Below the pieces are notes generated by a model that saw only the letters and a program-made list of their open reading frames with translations, had not been told where the DNA came from and searched no databases. From an uncultured Lachnospiraceae bacterium (lineage in GTDB: Bacteria; Bacillota; Clostridia; Lachnospirales; Lachnospiraceae), in contig CAJOLA010000002.1 in the NCBI GenBank assembly GCA_905235275.1, forward strand, positions 2,033-66,032: 64,000 bases of DNA, given 5' to 3'. Position 1 is the first letter of the stretch; the number at the start of each line of letters is the position of its first letter. Positions 3,390 to 40,343 of this stretch are shown one piece after another. The position numbers and the translations under genes are program-made.

Positions 3390-3635
3390 ATTGAGGCTGT
3401 GACATTGATAGCTGTGAAGCGTGAGGTTGCTTGCAAATGCGTAAGTACATGCCTTTGCGAGGTTTTCCGTGGAGCGAATGTCAGTGAATCCGACGACAAG
3501 TCACTGTACGAATCATCTGTAATATAACAGAAATGACACGTTGTTTTGTAGAGAATTTATGAAACACGTGGGAGTGTGTACAGTCACCGCTTGTCGTACT
3601 TACAACAAAAGTGCGAATAGGAGGCGACTTTTTTT

Positions 3636-22442: not shown

Positions 22443-22538
22443 AAAACGACATCGTCTGAGACACTTATATCGCGTAAAGTCAGTATCCGCAGCAGGTATT
22501 ATAAACTTATATGAATGCCGGCGTCTCTTAAGGGGAAG

Positions 22539-22627
22539 CAATTCGCTAAGCATTTCGCTAAGCAATTCGCTAAGCATTTCGCTAAGCATTTCGCTAAGCA
22601 TTTCGCTAAACAATTCGCTAAGCGTTT
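22539..22627. repeat. 12-bp tandem repeat, CA[A/T]TTCGCTAAG x7 plus a partial unit
   Basis: Seven head-to-tail 12-mers run from 22539 to 22622, plus a degenerate eighth. They lie in the convergent intergenic region downstream of truA. Confidence 0.95.
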
Positions 22628-22653
22628 CCCAAAGATAAAGTATTCGAAATATC

Positions 22654-35980: not shown

Positions 35981-37351
35981 ATGATAAAAAAATTACGAAT
36001 AAAACTTATAGCGGTTGCGATGATATCCATGTTTGTGGTCCTTGGAACCATTGTGTCCGCAATAAATATTATCAACTACAACAAAACGGTCAATGATGCC
36101 GATGCGATACTGACCGTCTTAAAGGAAAATGACGGTAAATTCCCAAGGGACATGAGACCTGACATGGAAGCACAGGATTTCGCACAGTCCGATTCATCAC
36201 AGAGTGAGTCCACGGGGCAGCAGGAGAGCGGTGCGACACAGGAGGCGACTCCTCCGACCTTTCCGAAAGAAAACGAAAGCTTCACACGTGAGGGGCGAGG
36301 TCACGGACCGGACGGTCACATGCTTCTTAATTCTCCGGAGACGGCTTACGAGTCAAGGTTTTTTAGCGTAAGCCTTGACAGTTCCGGAAACGTAACGGGG
36401 ACGGATGTCGGTCAGATTGCAGCCATCGATTCGGAGTCGGCAAAGGAGATGGCGGCATACGTTTACGCATCAGGAAGACAGAAAGGATTTTACGGCAATT
36501 ACAGATATGTGCGCTCAGAGAGTGATTCCGGAGTACGGATAATTTTTCTTGATTGCATGAGGAGTCTTTCGAGCTTCAGGAATACTCTTTTAATGAGTAT
36601 AGTCGTATCGCTTATCGGACTGGGTGCCGTATTTGTTCTTGTAATTATTTTCTCAAGACGCATAGTAAAGCCTGTTTCCGAGAGCTACGAAAAGCAAAAA
36701 GAGTTTATTACGAATGCGGGGCATGAGCTTAAGACACCGCTTAGCATCATTAATGCCGATGCCGAGGTTCTTGAGATGGAAAGCGGTGAGAGCGAATGGC
36801 TTGATGACATTAAGAATCAGACATCAAGGCTTGCGGCTTTAACCAACGACCTGATATTTCTTGCGAAGATGGAAGAGGGCGGCGGAGAGCTTGTCCTGAT
36901 AGAATTTCCTTTTTCCGATATGGTAAAGGAAGCGGTTAAGTCATTTGCCGCACCCGTTAAGGCGGCAGGAAAAACTCTTGCAACCGACATTGAAGATATG
37001 ATAAGTATTAAGGGCGACGAAAAAAGTCTGTATAAGCTTGTAAACATTCTTCTTGATAACGCGAATAAATACTCGCCCGAAGGCGGATACATTCATGTCG
37101 GCTTAAGGCGGCAAAAGGGTAGAACCATTCTTGATGTAACCAATACAACCGATTATGACCTGGACAGGGATAATATCGACGGACTTTTTGACAGATTTTA
37201 CAGAGCCGATAAATCACGCAATTCGGGGAAGGGCGGATACGGCATAGGCTTGTCGGTTGCGAAAGCGATAACCGAAAAACACAAAGGAAAAATAAGAGCT
37301 TACGCAAAGGATGCGCGCTGTATGGTGATTGAAGTATCATTTGCGGGATGA
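35981..37351 (+). CDS. sensor histidine kinase (two TM helices, about 170-aa extracytoplasmic loop)
   Basis: H-box NAGHELKTPLS, N box LLDNANKYSP, and G boxes DRFYRAD and GYGIGLS. Confidence 0.92.
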   Translation: MIKKLRIKLIAVAMISMFVVLGTIVSAINIINYNKTVNDADAILTVLKENDGKFPRDMRPDMEAQDFAQSDSSQSESTGQQESGATQEATPPTFPKENESFTREGRGHGPDGHMLLNSPETAYESRFFSVSLDSSGNVTGTDVGQIAAIDSESAKEMAAYVYASGRQKGFYGNYRYVRSESDSGVRIIFLDCMRSLSSFRNTLLMSIVVSLIGLGAVFVLVIIFSRRIVKPVSESYEKQKEFITNAGHELKTPLSIINADAEVLEMESGESEWLDDIKNQTSRLAALTNDLIFLAKMEEGGGELVLIEFPFSDMVKEAVKSFAAPVKAAGKTLATDIEDMISIKGDEKSLYKLVNILLDNANKYSPEGGYIHVGLRRQKGRTILDVTNTTDYDLDRDNIDGLFDRFYRADKSRNSGKGGYGIGLSVAKAITEKHKGKIRAYAKDARCMVIEVSFAG

Positions 37352-37362
37352 TTGGAGATAAA

Positions 37363-37860
37363 ATGATTTACAGAAGAAACGTAAGTACACGCAGAGGCAT
37401 GAAGGTATCTTTTTCGACAACATGGGAATATAAATCTGAATTCATCACGGATGCGTGTTATGACATCATAAAGAATGATTTTGGGTCAAGTCTTGTCAGG
37501 GCGTGCGTGATAATGGAGCAGGGCGGAAAGAAGCAGGAGATTTTGGATGACGTTAAAGTCTCGGAAACCGTCGACCCTGCTGTTTTTGAAAAGCTGGCTA
37601 AAGGCTGCGATGAGGCGATTATTGCAGGATACAGTAAAATAATGGACTGTCCGATTGAATTTCATTTTAGTGCGGGGACTAACGTGGTAGAGCTTACGTG
37701 TCTTAAAATGGGCTTTTTTAACAAAAAAGGCAAGCATGCATTTGACGTATACATGGACAGTATCGAGATAAATGCATATTGTCGTGACGTCAGAAGAAAG
37801 ACGTCTTTAAAATATGAAAATAATGACAAAAAAATTCTTGACAAGGGTCAACCGCTATAA
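37363..37860 (+). CDS. hypothetical protein
   Basis: ORF with a GGAG RBS 5 nt before the ATG at 37363. An alternative start at 37348 overlaps the kinase stop. I recognise no family. Its 3' end contains the tRNA operon promoter. Confidence 0.4.
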   Translation: MIYRRNVSTRRGMKVSFSTTWEYKSEFITDACYDIIKNDFGSSLVRACVIMEQGGKKQEILDDVKVSETVDPAVFEKLAKGCDEAIIAGYSKIMDCPIEFHFSAGTNVVELTCLKMGFFNKKGKHAFDVYMDSIEINAYCRDVRRKTSLKYENNDKKILDKGQPL

Positions 37861-37866
37861 TATAAT
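37838..37866 (+). promoter_or_regulatory. consensus sigma-A promoter of the tRNA operon (TTGACA-17-TATAAT)
   Basis: TTGACA at 37838-37843, an exact 17-nt spacer and TATAAT at 37861-37866. It lies 56 nt upstream of tRNA-Pro. Confidence 0.8.
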
Positions 37867-37921
37867 GCTACTTGCGTTGCGAAGAGAGAGCTTTAAAACG
37901 CAAGTGAATTTTAGGAGCTGA

Positions 37922-37996
<75 letters not shown>

Positions 37997-38021
37997 TATT
38001 TCAGCCAATATATTATTTTTT

Positions 38022-38092
38022 GCGGGTGTAGTTCAATGGTAGAACACCAGCCTTCCAAGCTGGATACGTGGGTTCGATTCCCATCACCCGCT
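38022..38092 (+). tRNA. tRNA-Gly (anticodon TCC)
   Basis: Acceptor GCGGGTG/CACCCGC, anticodon arm CCAGC-CTTCCAA-GCTGG, T-arm GTGGG-TTCGATT-CCCAT. No encoded CCA. Confidence 0.9.
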
Positions 38093-38096
38093 TTGT

Positions 38097-38170
<74 letters not shown>

Positions 38171-38177
38171 CTAATAT

Positions 38178-38252
38178 GGTGGGTATAGCACAGCTGGTCA
38201 GCGCGTCTGATTGTGGTTCAGAAGGTCGAGGGTTCGAATCCCTCTATCCACC
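38178..38252 (+). tRNA. tRNA-His (anticodon GTG, with encoded G-1)
   Basis: An extra 5' G pairs with discriminator C. Acceptor GTGGGTA/TATCCAC, anticodon arm TCTGA-TTGTGGT-TCAGA. Confidence 0.88.
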
Positions 38253-38264
38253 CTGGTCGGATAA

Positions 38265-38336
38265 TGGGCTATCGCCAAGCGGTAAGGCACAGGGTTTTGA
38301 TCCCTGCATTCGCCGGTTCGAATCCGGCTAGCCCAG
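38265..38336 (+). tRNA. tRNA-Gln (anticodon TTG)
   Basis: Acceptor TGGGCTA/TAGCCCA, anticodon arm CAGGG-TTTTGAT-CCCTG, T-arm GCCGG-TTCGAAT-CCGGC. Confidence 0.9.
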
Positions 38337-38357
38337 TTATATCGGCAAATAAATGAA

Positions 38358-38762
38358 GCAGAAATTTTGGTCTTTAACCAAGTGACGTTTCGACCAACGG
38401 GAGAAACTCACAAAGCTTTGCGAAGCAGAAATTTTGGTCTTTGACCAAAGGATGTTTCGACCGAAGGGAGAAACTCACAAAGCTTTGCGAAGTAGAAATT
38501 TTGGTCTTTGACCAAAGGATGTTTCGACCGAAGGGAGAAACTCCAAATTTCTACGCAGTAGAAATTTTGCGAAGCCAAAGGATGTTTCGACCGCAGGGAG
38601 AAACTCCAAATTTCTGCGAAGCAGAAATTTTGGCGTAGCCAAGTGATGTTTCGACCGAAGGGAGAAACTCACAAAGCTTTGCGTAGCAAAGATTTTGGCG
38701 AAGCCAAAGGATGTTTCGACCGAAGGGAGAAACTCCAAATTTTTGCGCAGCAAAAATTTTGG
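38358..38762 (+). repeat. tandem array of six 63-67-nt structured repeats plus a seventh partial unit that abuts tRNA-Lys
   Basis: Unit starts are at 38358, 38425, 38492, 38558, 38621, 38686 and 38750. The conserved core is GATGTTTCGACCGAAGGGAGAAACTC, flanked by hairpin-forming arms that covary. Confidence 0.9.
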
Positions 38763-38833
38763 GCTCGTAGCTCAGTCGGTAGAGCACTAGACTTTTAATC
38801 TAGGTGTCCCGGGTTCGAACCCCGGCGGGCTCA
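38761..38833 (+). tRNA. tRNA-Lys (anticodon TTT)
   Basis: Acceptor GGGCTCG/CGGGCTC (two G-T pairs), anticodon arm CTAGA-CTTTTAA-TCTAG, T-arm CCGGG-TTCGAAC-CCCGG. Confidence 0.88.
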
Positions 38834-38870
38834 CAAAAAAAGCAGGCATTCATATGAATGCCTGTTTTTT
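38834..38870. terminator. bidirectional intrinsic terminator (tRNA operon / hydrolase gene)
   Basis: An A7 run, the perfect palindrome CAGGCATTCATATGAATGCCTG, then a T6 run. Confidence 0.85.
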
Positions 38871-38873
38871 GAT

Positions 38874-39776
38874 TTATGCCCCTTCCATTTCCAGGATATC
38901 ATTAATGGCTTCATCAATCGCCCGTCTTCCTTCGACAGTCGGAAGAAGCGGGAAGTCGTGTCCGAGATTTTCACCGACGTAGATATTACAGTTTTTTCCT
39001 GCCTTTTTTAATTTGTCGTAAAATTGCGATATGTCGGGATAAAATATCTCTTCGGAACCCACGAAAAGGTCAACGTTATCGAGCCCGTTAACATCGCCGA
39101 ACATCGGACTGACCCTATAGTCACGCGTGTCGAGGTCTCCCGCCCAGTGAATGCCGTATCTTACAAGACCGGGGGGTGAGAGCATAATGTCTCTGTCAAC
39201 GAAATCATCCATTTCCGGATTGCTCATCGATACATCAAGCCAGGGCGAGAAAAGTATAAGCTTATCCGGGGTAGGGATATTCTCCGTTGCAAAATATTCA
39301 CTGAGGCTGAGCGCCAGTCCGCCACCTGCGGAATCACCCATTAAAATAAATTTTTTGTCCGGAAACCTTTTAAGCAATGAGTTGTAAACATCCTCAACAA
39401 ACTTAAAAGCATCATCATGATTGGCATAAGGCATAAGCTCATAGAGCGGTACTATCATGTGGCATTTCGTCTTATATGCAATACGATCAATCATTTTCCA
39501 GTGAAAAGCAGTTATCTCATCAACGAAAGCTCCTCCGTGCAAATAAATTATCACGGTATCGGAATCGGATGATTCGTTTAAATAATATACAGGCTGATTG
39601 TCCATATCCTTTTCCGTTATATCACATTTAAATCTGAGATATATAGGGAGGGAATACTGTGGTTTACTATGTTGTGATTTTTTATTTAAAAATTCTTCTA
39701 CCTCCTCGGGGCTTTTTTTTCTGTATCTTAATTGAACCAACTGTTCTACAAAGTTGGCCATTAATGACTTGCGCAT
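38874..39776 (-). CDS. alpha/beta hydrolase (hormone-sensitive-lipase-type esterase)
   Basis: Oxyanion motif HGGAF and nucleophile elbow GDSAGG. A C-terminal GHDF holds the catalytic His. Confidence 0.85.
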   Translation of the reverse strand: MRKSLMANFVEQLVQLRYRKKSPEEVEEFLNKKSQHSKPQYSLPIYLRFKCDITEKDMDNQPVYYLNESSDSDTVIIYLHGGAFVDEITAFHWKMIDRIAYKTKCHMIVPLYELMPYANHDDAFKFVEDVYNSLLKRFPDKKFILMGDSAGGGLALSLSEYFATENIPTPDKLILFSPWLDVSMSNPEMDDFVDRDIMLSPPGLVRYGIHWAGDLDTRDYRVSPMFGDVNGLDNVDLFVGSEEIFYPDISQFYDKLKKAGKNCNIYVGENLGHDFPLLPTVEGRRAIDEAINDILEMEGA

Positions 39777-40060: not shown

Positions 40061-40210
40061 AAATCTTCCTTCCAAAACAAAGCCCTAAGCTTTGTCAAAA
40101 CATATTAACTCCTAACATATCAAAGAGGCGGGATAAAATCAAGTAAACAAAATGTAAAGAGTTTGACGGGGTTAAAATTTAGTGTTAGATTAAGTGAAAA
40201 GTAAATACAA

Positions 40211-40343
40211 ATGCAGGGGAGTCCGTGAGCGGGCTGAGAGGAAGTTATCAACTTCGACCCTTTAACCTGATTTGGGTAATGCCAACGTAGGAAGTCACAG
40301 AGAGTTTTTTTGATAAGGCGCTTCCGGCGTCTTATCTTTTTTT
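40211..40343 (+). promoter_or_regulatory. TPP riboswitch (THI element) with terminator expression platform
   Basis: The conserved THI-box segments GGGGAG..GCTGAGAGG..ACCCTTTAACCTGAT..GGGTAATGCC..AGGAAG are present. A GATAAGGCGC/GCGTCTTATC hairpin and T7 run follow at 40312-40343. Confidence 0.88.

Follow-up and report, generated by a model that had tools for sequence, protein, structure and literature searches.

Here we describe a tandem array of 63-67-nt structured repeats inside a transfer RNA (tRNA) operon of an uncultured Lachnospiraceae bacterium, in a 64,000-nt stretch of contig CAJOLA010000002.1 (assembly GCA_905235275.1, positions 2,033 to 66,032; hereafter the window). Six direct units and the beginning of a seventh lie between tRNA-Gln and tRNA-Lys, and a hairpin module found in these units recurs before tRNA genes of related bacteria. 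The anatomy of the array, its strand specificity, its linkage to tRNA genes and its orthology across species are established here, as is the lack of any coding or known-family signal. The reading that we favour, at about even confidence, is that the array arose by local amplification and homogenisation of a structured pre-tRNA leader module, which would act in cis and whose multiplicity would have no separate function. An earlier first-pass annotation of the same DNA had proposed that the structure of these repeats is under selection; its observation was confirmed, and its interpretation was partly supported.

Tandem Repeats Finder (TRF) reported a single array (38355-38762, period 67, 6.2 copies, 86% matches, score 483), with an alternative double period of 129 nt, in the 424-nt gap that separates tRNA-Gln from tRNA-Lys; this bears out the 63-67-nt repeats in a gap of about 420 nt described in the first-pass annotation. 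All units are direct repeats (6/6 in the same orientation). The core GTTTCGACCNNNGGGAGAAACTC occurs six times with two or fewer mismatches, where shuffled sequences lead one to expect 0.00, and a search of the full 64 kb returned no copy outside the array. It had been called invariant, which proved too strong, as the core is identical in just three of the six units: the flanks GAT...TC are the same in u3, u4 and u6, the loop triplet is GAA, AAC or GCA, and u1 has GAC. After the sixth unit, a partial seventh (GCAAAAATTTT) stops 1 nt 5' of tRNA-Lys, and its TTTTGG overlaps the first G residues of that tRNA, as had been claimed. No reading frame persists on either strand of the array; the only ones present are frame-broken open reading frames (ORFs) with TTG or GTG starts, and coding potential was dropped as an explanation.

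The operon around the array (Table 1) contains six tRNA genes. The first-pass annotation had counted five, which holds for those preceding the array, as does its spacing of 4-25 nt (the four spacers are 25, 4, 7 and 11 nt by ARAGORN and Rfam). The consensus promoter that it placed at 37838 was recovered at 12/12, along with the terminator that it placed past tRNA-Lys (stem 38843-38864); this stem was called on the minus strand by the terminator scan, is bidirectional on visual inspection, and is common to the tRNA operon and a convergent esterase gene. Just one further promoter-like site, a weak one (9/12 at 37985), lies between the operon promoter and tRNA-Lys, and the promoter scan found none in the interior of the array, so that tRNA-Lys can be produced only by read-through of the array. 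An encoded CCA, as read from the sequence, is missing from all six tRNA genes.

Every unit contains three hairpins, H1, H2 and H3, and the unit and junction hairpins listed in the first-pass annotation are all present. H1 is a junction hairpin across neighbouring units, with 10-nt arms and a GNA triloop; its perfect copies differ in sequence (CTAC/GTAG in the third, CTGC/GCAG in the fourth and TTGC/GCAA in the sixth), and the final copy ends 1 nt short of tRNA-Lys. The H2 of u4 carries a 1-nt deletion, and is intact in another sample (ERZ27234817). In H3, five Watson-Crick pairs are followed by a symmetric tandem G.A/A.G loop and then by two C-G pairs that close a triloop, and the stem is extended by GGA(U)/UCC or GUGA(U/C)/UCAC, with a bulged pyrimidine. 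The H3 tip is CC-GNA-GG in five of the six copies, and exactly CCGAAGG in four. The GGAG-AAA-CTCC stem that had been proposed for all units is available in those ending in CTCC, but not in the others. As RNA, the whole array folds far better than its shuffles (z = -8.6).

The same module occurs in tRNA operons of other genomes. A scan for GTTTCGACCNNNGGGAGAAAC across single genomes of each species yielded 53 loci, where we estimate that about 17 would be expected by chance in 596 Gb, and the matches that share the flanks of the window units came from two rumen Lachnospiraceae metagenome-assembled genomes (MAGs; L015 and L037), which carry the same H3 21-mer as the three identical window units. 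In both, the hairpin lies in tRNA-operon spacers on the tRNA strand; after it come CAAGC, a short hairpin with a GAA triloop, and GGUUUU adjoining the next tRNA, the tRNAs so preceded being tRNA-Asp, Thr, Met and Phe. L015 also holds variants that keep the fold: GUUCC-GA-GC-GAA-GC-GAA-GGAAC, GAGUUUC-AA-GGC..GCC-GUA-GAAACUC and GCGAU../..UCGC. The layout of the module is an H3 of 12-13 'pairs' with its tandem G.A/A.G and C(GNA)G tip, an A-rich linker, a short hairpin in which the GNA triloop is usual, and 1-7 U-rich nt that reach the 5' end of the tRNA.

With the flanking esterase and histidine kinase as anchors, orthologous loci were found in sister species; the esterases are only 64-69% identical. 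In one of these species (L062), tRNA-Arg, His and Gln are followed by a 203-nt spacer with three diverged H3 copies and then tRNA-Lys. One copy keeps GA/GA (GTTTC-GA-CC-GAA-GG-GA-GAAAG), another has GA/GAA and a GC/GC inner stem (GTTTC-GA-GC-GAA-GC-GAA-GAAAC), and in the third the G.A pairs are swapped for Watson-Crick pairs (GTTTTGAAC-GAA-GTTCAAAAC; in RNA form GUUUUGAAC-GAA-GUUCAAAAC); the hairpin just 5' of tRNA-Lys reads ACTCATTG-CGAAA-CAATGAGT (in RNA form ACUCAUUG-CGAAA-CAAUGAGU). In the other (L078), GUUUC-GA-GC-GCA-GC-GAA-GAAAC is followed by CUCUGC-GCA-GCAGAG, 5 nt before tRNA-Lys, and the contig ends in H3. The tRNA operon of this second species, seen on L058 and L078, appears to be inverted in place between the same esterase and histidine kinase, and H3 stays sense to the tRNAs. 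Across the three species the tRNA-proximal hairpin keeps its place with a wholly different sequence. Structure is conserved beyond the array, as H3 and the proximal hairpin still pair with different sequences in the sister species and in other Lachnospiraceae, and the combination of H3 and proximal hairpin in the tRNA-Lys leader predates the split of these species. Synteny searches through ThiC relatives and more distant histidine-kinase relatives met no tRNA operon at those loci.

The module was located in tRNA spacers of L015, L037, L062 and L078. The first-pass annotation had set linkage to tRNA loci against a common dispersed REP/MITE repeat, and the linkage held: the unit is not dispersed in this lineage, and the copies in the window and the related loci are at tRNA operons. 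The module is a real and undescribed structured tRNA-spacer element of related rumen bacteria, and probably a lineage-typical one. Farther away, in two Acutalibacteraceae lineages (L034/L010 and L044/L017), the same 21-mer is found about 60 nt past tRNA-Gly, inside a three-way-junction element that carries a terminator of its own. The order there (L034:2915-3075, L044:3260-3460) is tRNA-Gly, a terminator-like hairpin, the three-way-junction element and a second terminator; within an outer stem lie H3 and another hairpin, GAGTTCTGAGCC is conserved, and the element is a candidate small RNA without an Rfam match.

The pairing of H3 was examined statistically in two alignments. In the first, 17 copies were aligned by hand and compared with 500 shuffles: 81% of cells were paired against 74.7% after shuffling (0/500 reached the observed value), and there were 12 double-change cells (reached by 1/500). 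In the second, a model-based alignment from which the window units were left out, the covariation score was 0.265 against 0.169 +/- 0.024 for shuffles (0/500), with 18 double-change cells and compensatory changes in 6 of 11 pairs. Across both, 79-81% of cells were paired against 71-75% in shuffles, and five to six of the 11 pairs showed compensatory changes; pairing thus exceeded that of 500/500 shuffles, in a small sample of related sequences. The covariance model built from the hand alignment had the six units as its sole matches in the window (42-48 bits). When it was run with filters off on L015, L037, L062, L078, L034 and L044, all matches at E < 0.01 were sense-strand matches within spacers or trailers of tRNA operons, most of these copies being ones that had served to build the model. 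We take the H3 covariation statistics as support, not proof.

The sense strand is the constrained one. Of 15 tRNA-operon spacers taken from five genomes, 14 folded better as the sense than as the antisense strand (sums of -939.7 and -843.6 kcal/mol, respectively), the sense-strand loops of these spacers are overwhelmingly C(GNA)G, and on the antisense strand the purine-rich G.A loop of H3 would become C/U mismatches.

Table 1. Promoter, tRNA genes, repeat units, hairpins and terminator of the operon, in window coordinates.
Feature	Position	Strand	Remarks
Promoter TTGACA-17-TATAAT, consensus sigma-70 type	37838-37866	+	12/12 matches
tRNA-Pro(UGG), Gly(UCC), Arg(UCU), His(GUG), Gln(UUG)	37922-38336	+	ARAGORN and Rfam
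Lead-in TTATATCGGCAAATAAATGAA	38337-38357	+	unique, 21 nt, 3' of tRNA-Gln
Tandem array	38358-38760	+	63-67-nt units
Unit u1	38358-38424
Unit u2	38425-38491
Unit u3	38492-38557
Unit u4	38558-38620
Unit u5	38621-38684
Unit u6	38685-38749
Partial unit	38750-38760
H1, first three	38412-38434, 38479-38501, 38545-38567	+	8, 8 and 10 of 10 pairs
H1, last three	38608-38630, 38673-38695, 38737-38759	+	10, 9 and 10 of 10 pairs
H2, TTTGGTC-TTT-GACCAAA type	38366-38381, 38433-38449, 38500-38516	+
H2, TTTGGC-GNA-GCCAAA type	38566-38579, 38629-38643, 38694-38708	+
H3 cores, u1-u3	38387-38407, 38454-38474, 38521-38541	+	GTTTC-GA-CC-NNN-GG-GA-GAAAC
H3 cores, u4-u6	38584-38604, 38648-38668, 38713-38733	+	GTTTC-GA-CC-NNN-GG-GA-GAAAC
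tRNA-Lys(UUU)	38761-38834 (end 38833/4)	+	ARAGORN and Rfam, 71 bits
Intrinsic terminator: A7, stem CAGGCATTC-ATAT-GAATGCCTG, T6	38836-38870	both	stem 38843-38864

In the reading that we favour, the promoter at 37838 would drive a single precursor carrying the six tRNAs and the array. The hairpins cannot terminate transcription efficiently, since tRNA-Lys lacks a separate promoter. In the Bacillus subtilis paradigm, RNase Z trims the 3' end of tRNAs from CCA-less genes, and it would be expected to cut 3' of the CCA-less tRNA-Gln, at about 38337; RNase P would cut at 38761, the 5' end of tRNA-Lys. The two cuts would free a spacer RNA of about 424 nt, made up nearly entirely of stable hairpins and ending in hairpin-U-3'OH. 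The module would keep a long leader folded on itself beside the RNase P site, and the freed leader would gain a protected 3' end. The conservation of the module points to a role most likely exerted in cis; the six copies themselves most likely arose incidentally, through slippage of palindromic units or unequal crossing-over among them.

Several points weigh against this reading. Co-transcription is deduced from consensus scans and the cleavage sites from textbook tRNA maturation. We know of no case in which a stable hairpin 1-5 nt from an RNase P site aids RNase P, and it might hinder it. The comparative set is small and its members are related (three species for the operon, two other Lachnospiraceae and two Acutalibacteraceae lineages), and part of the training set of the covariance model doubles as its test set. 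In the Acutalibacteraceae, H3 follows a terminator-like hairpin downstream of the last tRNA, which is not a leader position. Compensatory changes can also stem from template switching rather than from selection (PMC8794818). C(GNA)G triloops and GCGNAGC typify exceptionally stable DNA hairpins and have much lower stability as RNA (PMC13037366), so that the choice of loops fits a role in single-stranded DNA at least as well.

The point about compensatory changes applies to the array itself. The first-pass annotation took such changes as a sign that structure is selected: structure is indeed kept across relatives, but the changes within the array are explicable by template switching or gene conversion. 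Replication template switching can co-convert both arms of a palindrome in one step (PMC8794818), template-switch conversion is documented for highly transcribed DNA (PMC3820800), and gene conversion between units could likewise yield paired arm changes, so that perfect yet different H1 arms could reflect selection or, equally, one-step conversion. Furthermore, the 5' and 3' H1 arms of one unit can form an alternative unit-closing stem with 54 of 60 pairs by hand count, against 55 of 60 for the local H1, and covariation within the array therefore cannot separate the two.

The history of the array is recorded in part by other contigs. In sample ERZ27234817 the distal array has another unit order, with a u5-u6-like pair before u4. 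The array ends are reproduced on contigs of that sample, where L076 holds a u1-u2 pair identical to that of the window and L054 holds u4-u6 with tRNA-Lys. Beyond these two units, L076:5545-5799 contains part of u3 and then abruptly unrelated sequence, and is probably an assembly chimera at the repeat. Among contigs of the same strain, L074 stops near tRNA-Lys and L077 inside the upstream tRNAs; with the exception of L077, which stops earlier, the short-read contigs recovered for the locus break at the array or within a few units of it. In L062:3100-3253(-), past tRNA-Lys and its terminator, a second H3 and hairpin are fused to the last ~16 nt of tRNA-Lys and followed by a second terminator copy; this partial duplicate looks like a module-tRNA unit with the tRNA body deleted, or like an att-like scar. 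The 129-nt double period fits duplication of unit pairs. The changed unit order, the partial duplicate, the double period and the contig breaks argue that an older module was subject to slippage or unequal crossing-over. That module seems to have been amplified six-fold only recently, given the three diverged copies in the sister species L062 and the other unit order in ERZ27234817, and amplification appears to be ongoing, judging by the unit order in ERZ27234817 and the partial duplicate in L062.

Rather unlikely, in our estimate, is that the excised array acts in trans as a multi-site decoy, or sponge, for a protein or RNA that recognises the tandem-G.A hairpin of H3 or its GGGAG Shine-Dalgarno-like 3' strand, where six sites would raise capacity as in CsrB/RsmZ or the tRNA-spacer sponge 3'ETS-leuZ. 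Within the unit, conservation is highest in the H3 core, whose 21-mer is identical in half of the units and in L015 and L037, and the stability of the array fold (z = -8.6) and a predicted RNase P product that ends in a hairpin and U run, like a terminator-ended small RNA, would suit such a role, as would the small-RNA-like Acutalibacteraceae element in which H3 sits in a three-way junction with its own terminator past tRNA-Gly. However, the binding partner is hypothetical, relatives carry one to three copies only, and the orthologous L062 copy with Watson-Crick pairs in place of G.A argues for 'any stable hairpin' rather than for a specific recognition surface. A CsrA site (AAGGAUGU) was considered and dropped, as its GGA is not conserved: GGA is found in the stem extension of four units, and the GGA of AAGGAUG becomes GUGAU in the other two and in relatives.

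A role at the DNA level is fairly improbable. According to this alternative, REP-like mini-hairpins are displayed on the sense strand (non-template, and lagging-strand template) of a very highly transcribed locus, and their RNA is incidental; the array would be either a set of selfish palindromes spreading by template switching or slippage, or a series of signals for a DNA enzyme, for example primase, gyrase or an HUH transposase. GCGNAGC occurs seven times in the 424 nt of the array, always on the + strand, and 22 times in the other 63.6 kb with both strands counted, and nearly all loops are C(GNA)G. GCGNAGC and CCGAAGG are extraordinarily stable mini-hairpins as DNA, whereas their RNA versions are much weaker (PMC13037366), a distinction that also qualifies the first-pass statement that GCGAAGC is exceptionally stable, true of DNA and much less so of RNA. 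The ssiA priming signal has CCGAAGG, the tip of H3, as its mini-hairpin (PMC13037366), and GCG(N)AGC tips are common in REPs (PMC2817692). GC skew identifies the + strand as leading, so that replication would expose the sense sequence on the template of the lagging strand. In L078, H1-like palindromes also lie past the operon terminator, and elsewhere the 21-mer forms the core of a dispersed REPIN-like repeat in Anaerolineae and part of an insertion-like element in two bacteria of the Candidate Phyla Radiation (CPR). Set against this, copies in this lineage are confined to tRNA spacers, none being present in the remaining 63.6 kb of the window or in related loci outside their tRNA regions, the units are all direct and sense, unlike those of BIMEs and REPINs, and no GTAG-type 5' tetranucleotide is present. 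Folding does not discriminate: RNA and DNA parameters give equally good folds of the array (DNA z = -8.4 for the + strand and -8.9 for the - strand), and the energies of its + and - strands, taken by themselves, do not set the two strands apart. RNA and sense-strand DNA are not separated by the evidence. RNA is favoured by the inverted sister operon, in which orientation follows the tRNAs and their transcription (the replication direction there being deduced from weak skew and gene orientation), and by the tight placing of the element relative to tRNA 5' ends.

It is very unlikely that the hairpins are attenuators, their U runs grading or regulating read-through into tRNA-Lys(UUU) and H3 serving as the sensing or anti-terminator partner. 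UUUU does follow each H1 in the window, and the GAGAAAC strand of H3 can pair, visibly in the sequence, with AUUUCU of the H1 5' arm, but this alternative pairing is of 5 bp and is not kept in L015, which has the hairpin AAAACC-GAA-GGTTTT there. The H1 and H2 stems are AT-rich with 3 G-C pairs, a terminator scan called a single weak site on the + strand of the array (38629-38643), six attenuators in series would nearly abolish expression of tRNA-Lys, and there is no evident ligand or protein sensor. In favour of attenuation, in the tRNA cluster downstream of the 23S rRNA in L015 (624-1952) strong terminator-like hairpins lie directly 5' of tRNA-Val and tRNA-Thr, and eight terminator-like sites were called against 1.7 expected, with no internal promoter. 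Spacers of 66-277 nt in this cluster are full of unrelated perfect hairpins, and no 5S rRNA was detected between the 23S rRNA and the first tRNA.

A degenerate CRISPR-like array, a ToxI-like type III antitoxin array and decayed tRNA pseudogenes are effectively refuted: the ~65-nt period and 26-nt conserved core resemble CRISPR geometry, type III antitoxins are tandem RNA repeats, and the unit shares AATTTTGG..CGTAGC with the 5' end of tRNA-Lys (p about 0.02-0.05), but the would-be spacers are not unique, being palindromes 60-100% mutually identical; there is no cas or toxN-like gene among the neighbours, the array being followed by tRNA-Lys, the terminator and a convergent Abhydrolase_3 esterase gene rather than a co-oriented toxin, and preceded by an ORF without a Pfam match and a two-component system; and the units have triloops, not 7-nt anticodon or T loops, with no tRNA-like unit by ARAGORN or Rfam. 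The shared AATTTTGG..CGTAGC is the sole unit-tRNA similarity above chance, and it arises because the repeat boundary runs into tRNA-Lys; beyond this junction the similarity is at chance, and a pseudogene origin was dropped.

A bolder proposal, which we hold to be unlikely, would make H3 and the proximal hairpin a new, conserved working motif of pre-tRNA leaders, as a cis determinant of RNase P/Z processing or of graded read-through, or else a recognition unit of a stable spacer RNA, multiplied to six sites that would titrate an H3-binding factor; the titrating version, if true, would amount to a sponge built into a tRNA operon. Long structured spacers of bacterial tRNA operons are usually dismissed as degraded junk. 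Here, one hairpin module recurs before different tRNAs, on the sense strand, with its structure kept and its sequence changed, and six-fold in one genome. Should the module influence the 5' maturation of tRNAs, read-through or the stability of the spacer RNA, tRNA biogenesis would gain a new cis element, and this in a major group of Firmicutes of gut and rumen; if the excised array is stable, it would represent a new route to a multi-site regulatory RNA. Additionally, the preference for GNA triloops offers a clean test case for selection on hairpins at the RNA level against the level of single-stranded DNA. Such elements are probably under-represented in MAGs, since short-read contigs break at the array.

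Known families were compared with the array. Rfam cmscan of 37000-39500 at E-values up to 10 returned just the tRNAs and sub-threshold noise, with no RtT, a result confirmed at the gathering score and in line with the first-pass remark that the unit was not recognised from any described family. At permissive E-values, Rfam gave no family for the element in the related tRNA loci, and no sequence in plasmid and phage collections matched the array by blastn. H3 was also considered as a K-turn, a hammerhead or a box C/D motif, and these readings were dropped because it has no 3-nt bulge, no CUGAUGA core and no CUGA box. The E. coli tyrT-distal repeats that give rise to rtT RNA had been cited as a precedent, and stand as an analogy only: like the array, they are tandem, non-coding or nearly so, and within a tRNA transcription unit, from which they are expected to be freed by tRNA-processing enzymes; rtT, however, is positioned differently, in the 3' trailer, and is a 178-bp repeat with a copy of a tRNA 3' end, whereas the array lies 5' of the last tRNA and has 63-67-nt units of three hairpins and no such copy. 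The 3'ETS-leuZ and internal transcribed spacers of E. coli are likewise by-products of pre-tRNA processing, and the predicted product of the array would end in a hairpin and U; those spacer RNAs are single-copy and base-pair with Hfq-dependent small RNAs, whereas the array is a multi-copy series of hairpins in which no target, seed region or Hfq-type site was identified. ToxI arrays and CsrB sponges share with it a tandem structured RNA unit able to bind several copies of one protein, but the array has no adjacent toxin gene and no conserved loop GGA, and its unit is outside the 34-45 nt of type III antitoxins.

The hairpins themselves were compared with DNA elements. The mini-hairpins of Hirao (GCGNAGC and CCGAAGG), which are defined biophysically as DNA and have known natural roles at single-strand origins of phages and plasmids and at N4 promoters but not in tRNA operons, are present as motifs on the sense strand of the array, the seven GCGNAGC among them. 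REP/BIME/REPIN elements and pneumococcal BOX share short imperfect palindromes, GCG(N)AGC tips (PMC2817692), a modular build and an extragenic but transcribed location, the likeness of BOX in tandem amplification lying in boxB. In contrast to REP/BIME, which number tens to hundreds of extragenic copies dispersed over a genome and alternate in orientation between neighbours, the array has no dispersed copies in the window or related loci, is strictly sense-oriented with direct units, is tied to tRNA 5' ends, and carries GGAT or GTGAT before the stem, without a 5' GT(A/G)G tetranucleotide; no RAYT gene was found among the seven ORFs around the array, the only ones scanned. By analogy, then, the array would work most like the tyrT/rtT repeats and the E. 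coli tRNA-spacer RNAs, and its hairpins seem to be built most like REP/BIME or BOX. It lacks defining features of each of the RtT, REP/BIME, CRISPR and type III toxin-antitoxin families.

The H3 21-mer was also met in distant genomes, in other settings. In Clostridia, Kiritimatiellaeota and a high-GC viral contig, the hairpin lies 1-5 nt before the start codons of unrelated genes (L011:5400, L013:7484(-), L021:1189, L028:6216, L045:5124, L052:141 and L057:3212(-)), where its GGGAG is the Shine-Dalgarno sequence and 4-5 tandem repeats of 7-8 nt precede it (for example, CTTCACT x4 or GCTGACG-type). A gene family shared downstream was considered and dropped, the genes being unrelated. At L019:3895, no start codon follows the 21-mer, and short repeats lie downstream instead. 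Anaerolineae genomes contain a dispersed REPIN-like element built around the 21-mer, with a long inverted repeat, TTGTCGTTTCGACCGNAGGGAGAAACCTTGC ... TCTCCTCGGAGAGCGCTCGTCGAAACGACAA (L001, L004:1010 and 1283, L005, L006, L023, L031, L039 and L046), several copies of which lie just upstream of tRNA-Met in L004; a crude HUH screen near the Anaerolineae copies for RAYT-like genes gave nothing convincing. The 21-mer has the same part, with TGTC...C flanks, in some Proteobacteria, Desulfobulbus and Riflebacteria. Related forms occur in L025, L027, L030, L038, L032 and L041, and in L032 and L041 the variant TGTCATTTCGAGCGATAGCGAGAAATC overlaps the 3' end of a small GIY-YIG-looking gene. Two CPR bacteria (L051:397-570 and L009:6960-7050(-)) have in common an element of about 75 nt, in which the 21-mer tips a longer hairpin and is accompanied by a GUA-triloop hairpin. 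The Saccharibacteria copy, past tRNA-Lys, has a copy of a 29-nt direct repeat on either side, and the Kaiserbacteria copy is embedded in frame in a 227-aa GrpE-looking ORF that is intact; this resembles insertions of palindromic elements into genes. Rfam at permissive E-values returned nothing for eight distant 21-mer loci, a scan of viral sequences gave one match in a different context, and the metagenome_contigs scan gave one irrelevant coding match.

Upstream of the array, the neighbouring genes are a response regulator, a histidine kinase and the 170-aa ORF without a Pfam match; downstream lie the convergent Abhydrolase_3 esterase and a thi operon behind a thiamine pyrophosphate (TPP) riboswitch. 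The seven ORFs scanned around the array include no cas, toxN or transposase gene. The 170-aa ORF (37348-37860) has its stop codon inside the -10 box of the tRNA-operon promoter; its exact sequence is missing from a collection of 15 billion proteins, and other assemblies call a 165-aa product there. When L058:5993-6373 and L078:4540-4669 are compared with window 37922-38834, the 170-aa ORF is absent and a run of palindromes is found instead. Elsewhere in the window, an S10-Clostridia ribosomal-protein leader (3406-3499) and the TPP riboswitch upstream of thiC (40205-40311) are both ordinary, and place the organism in Clostridia. Finally, a 12-nt tandem repeat, AAGCATTTCGCT, with 7.8 copies and 90% matches, occupies 22536-22628 and is covered solely by short doubtful ORFs on both strands.

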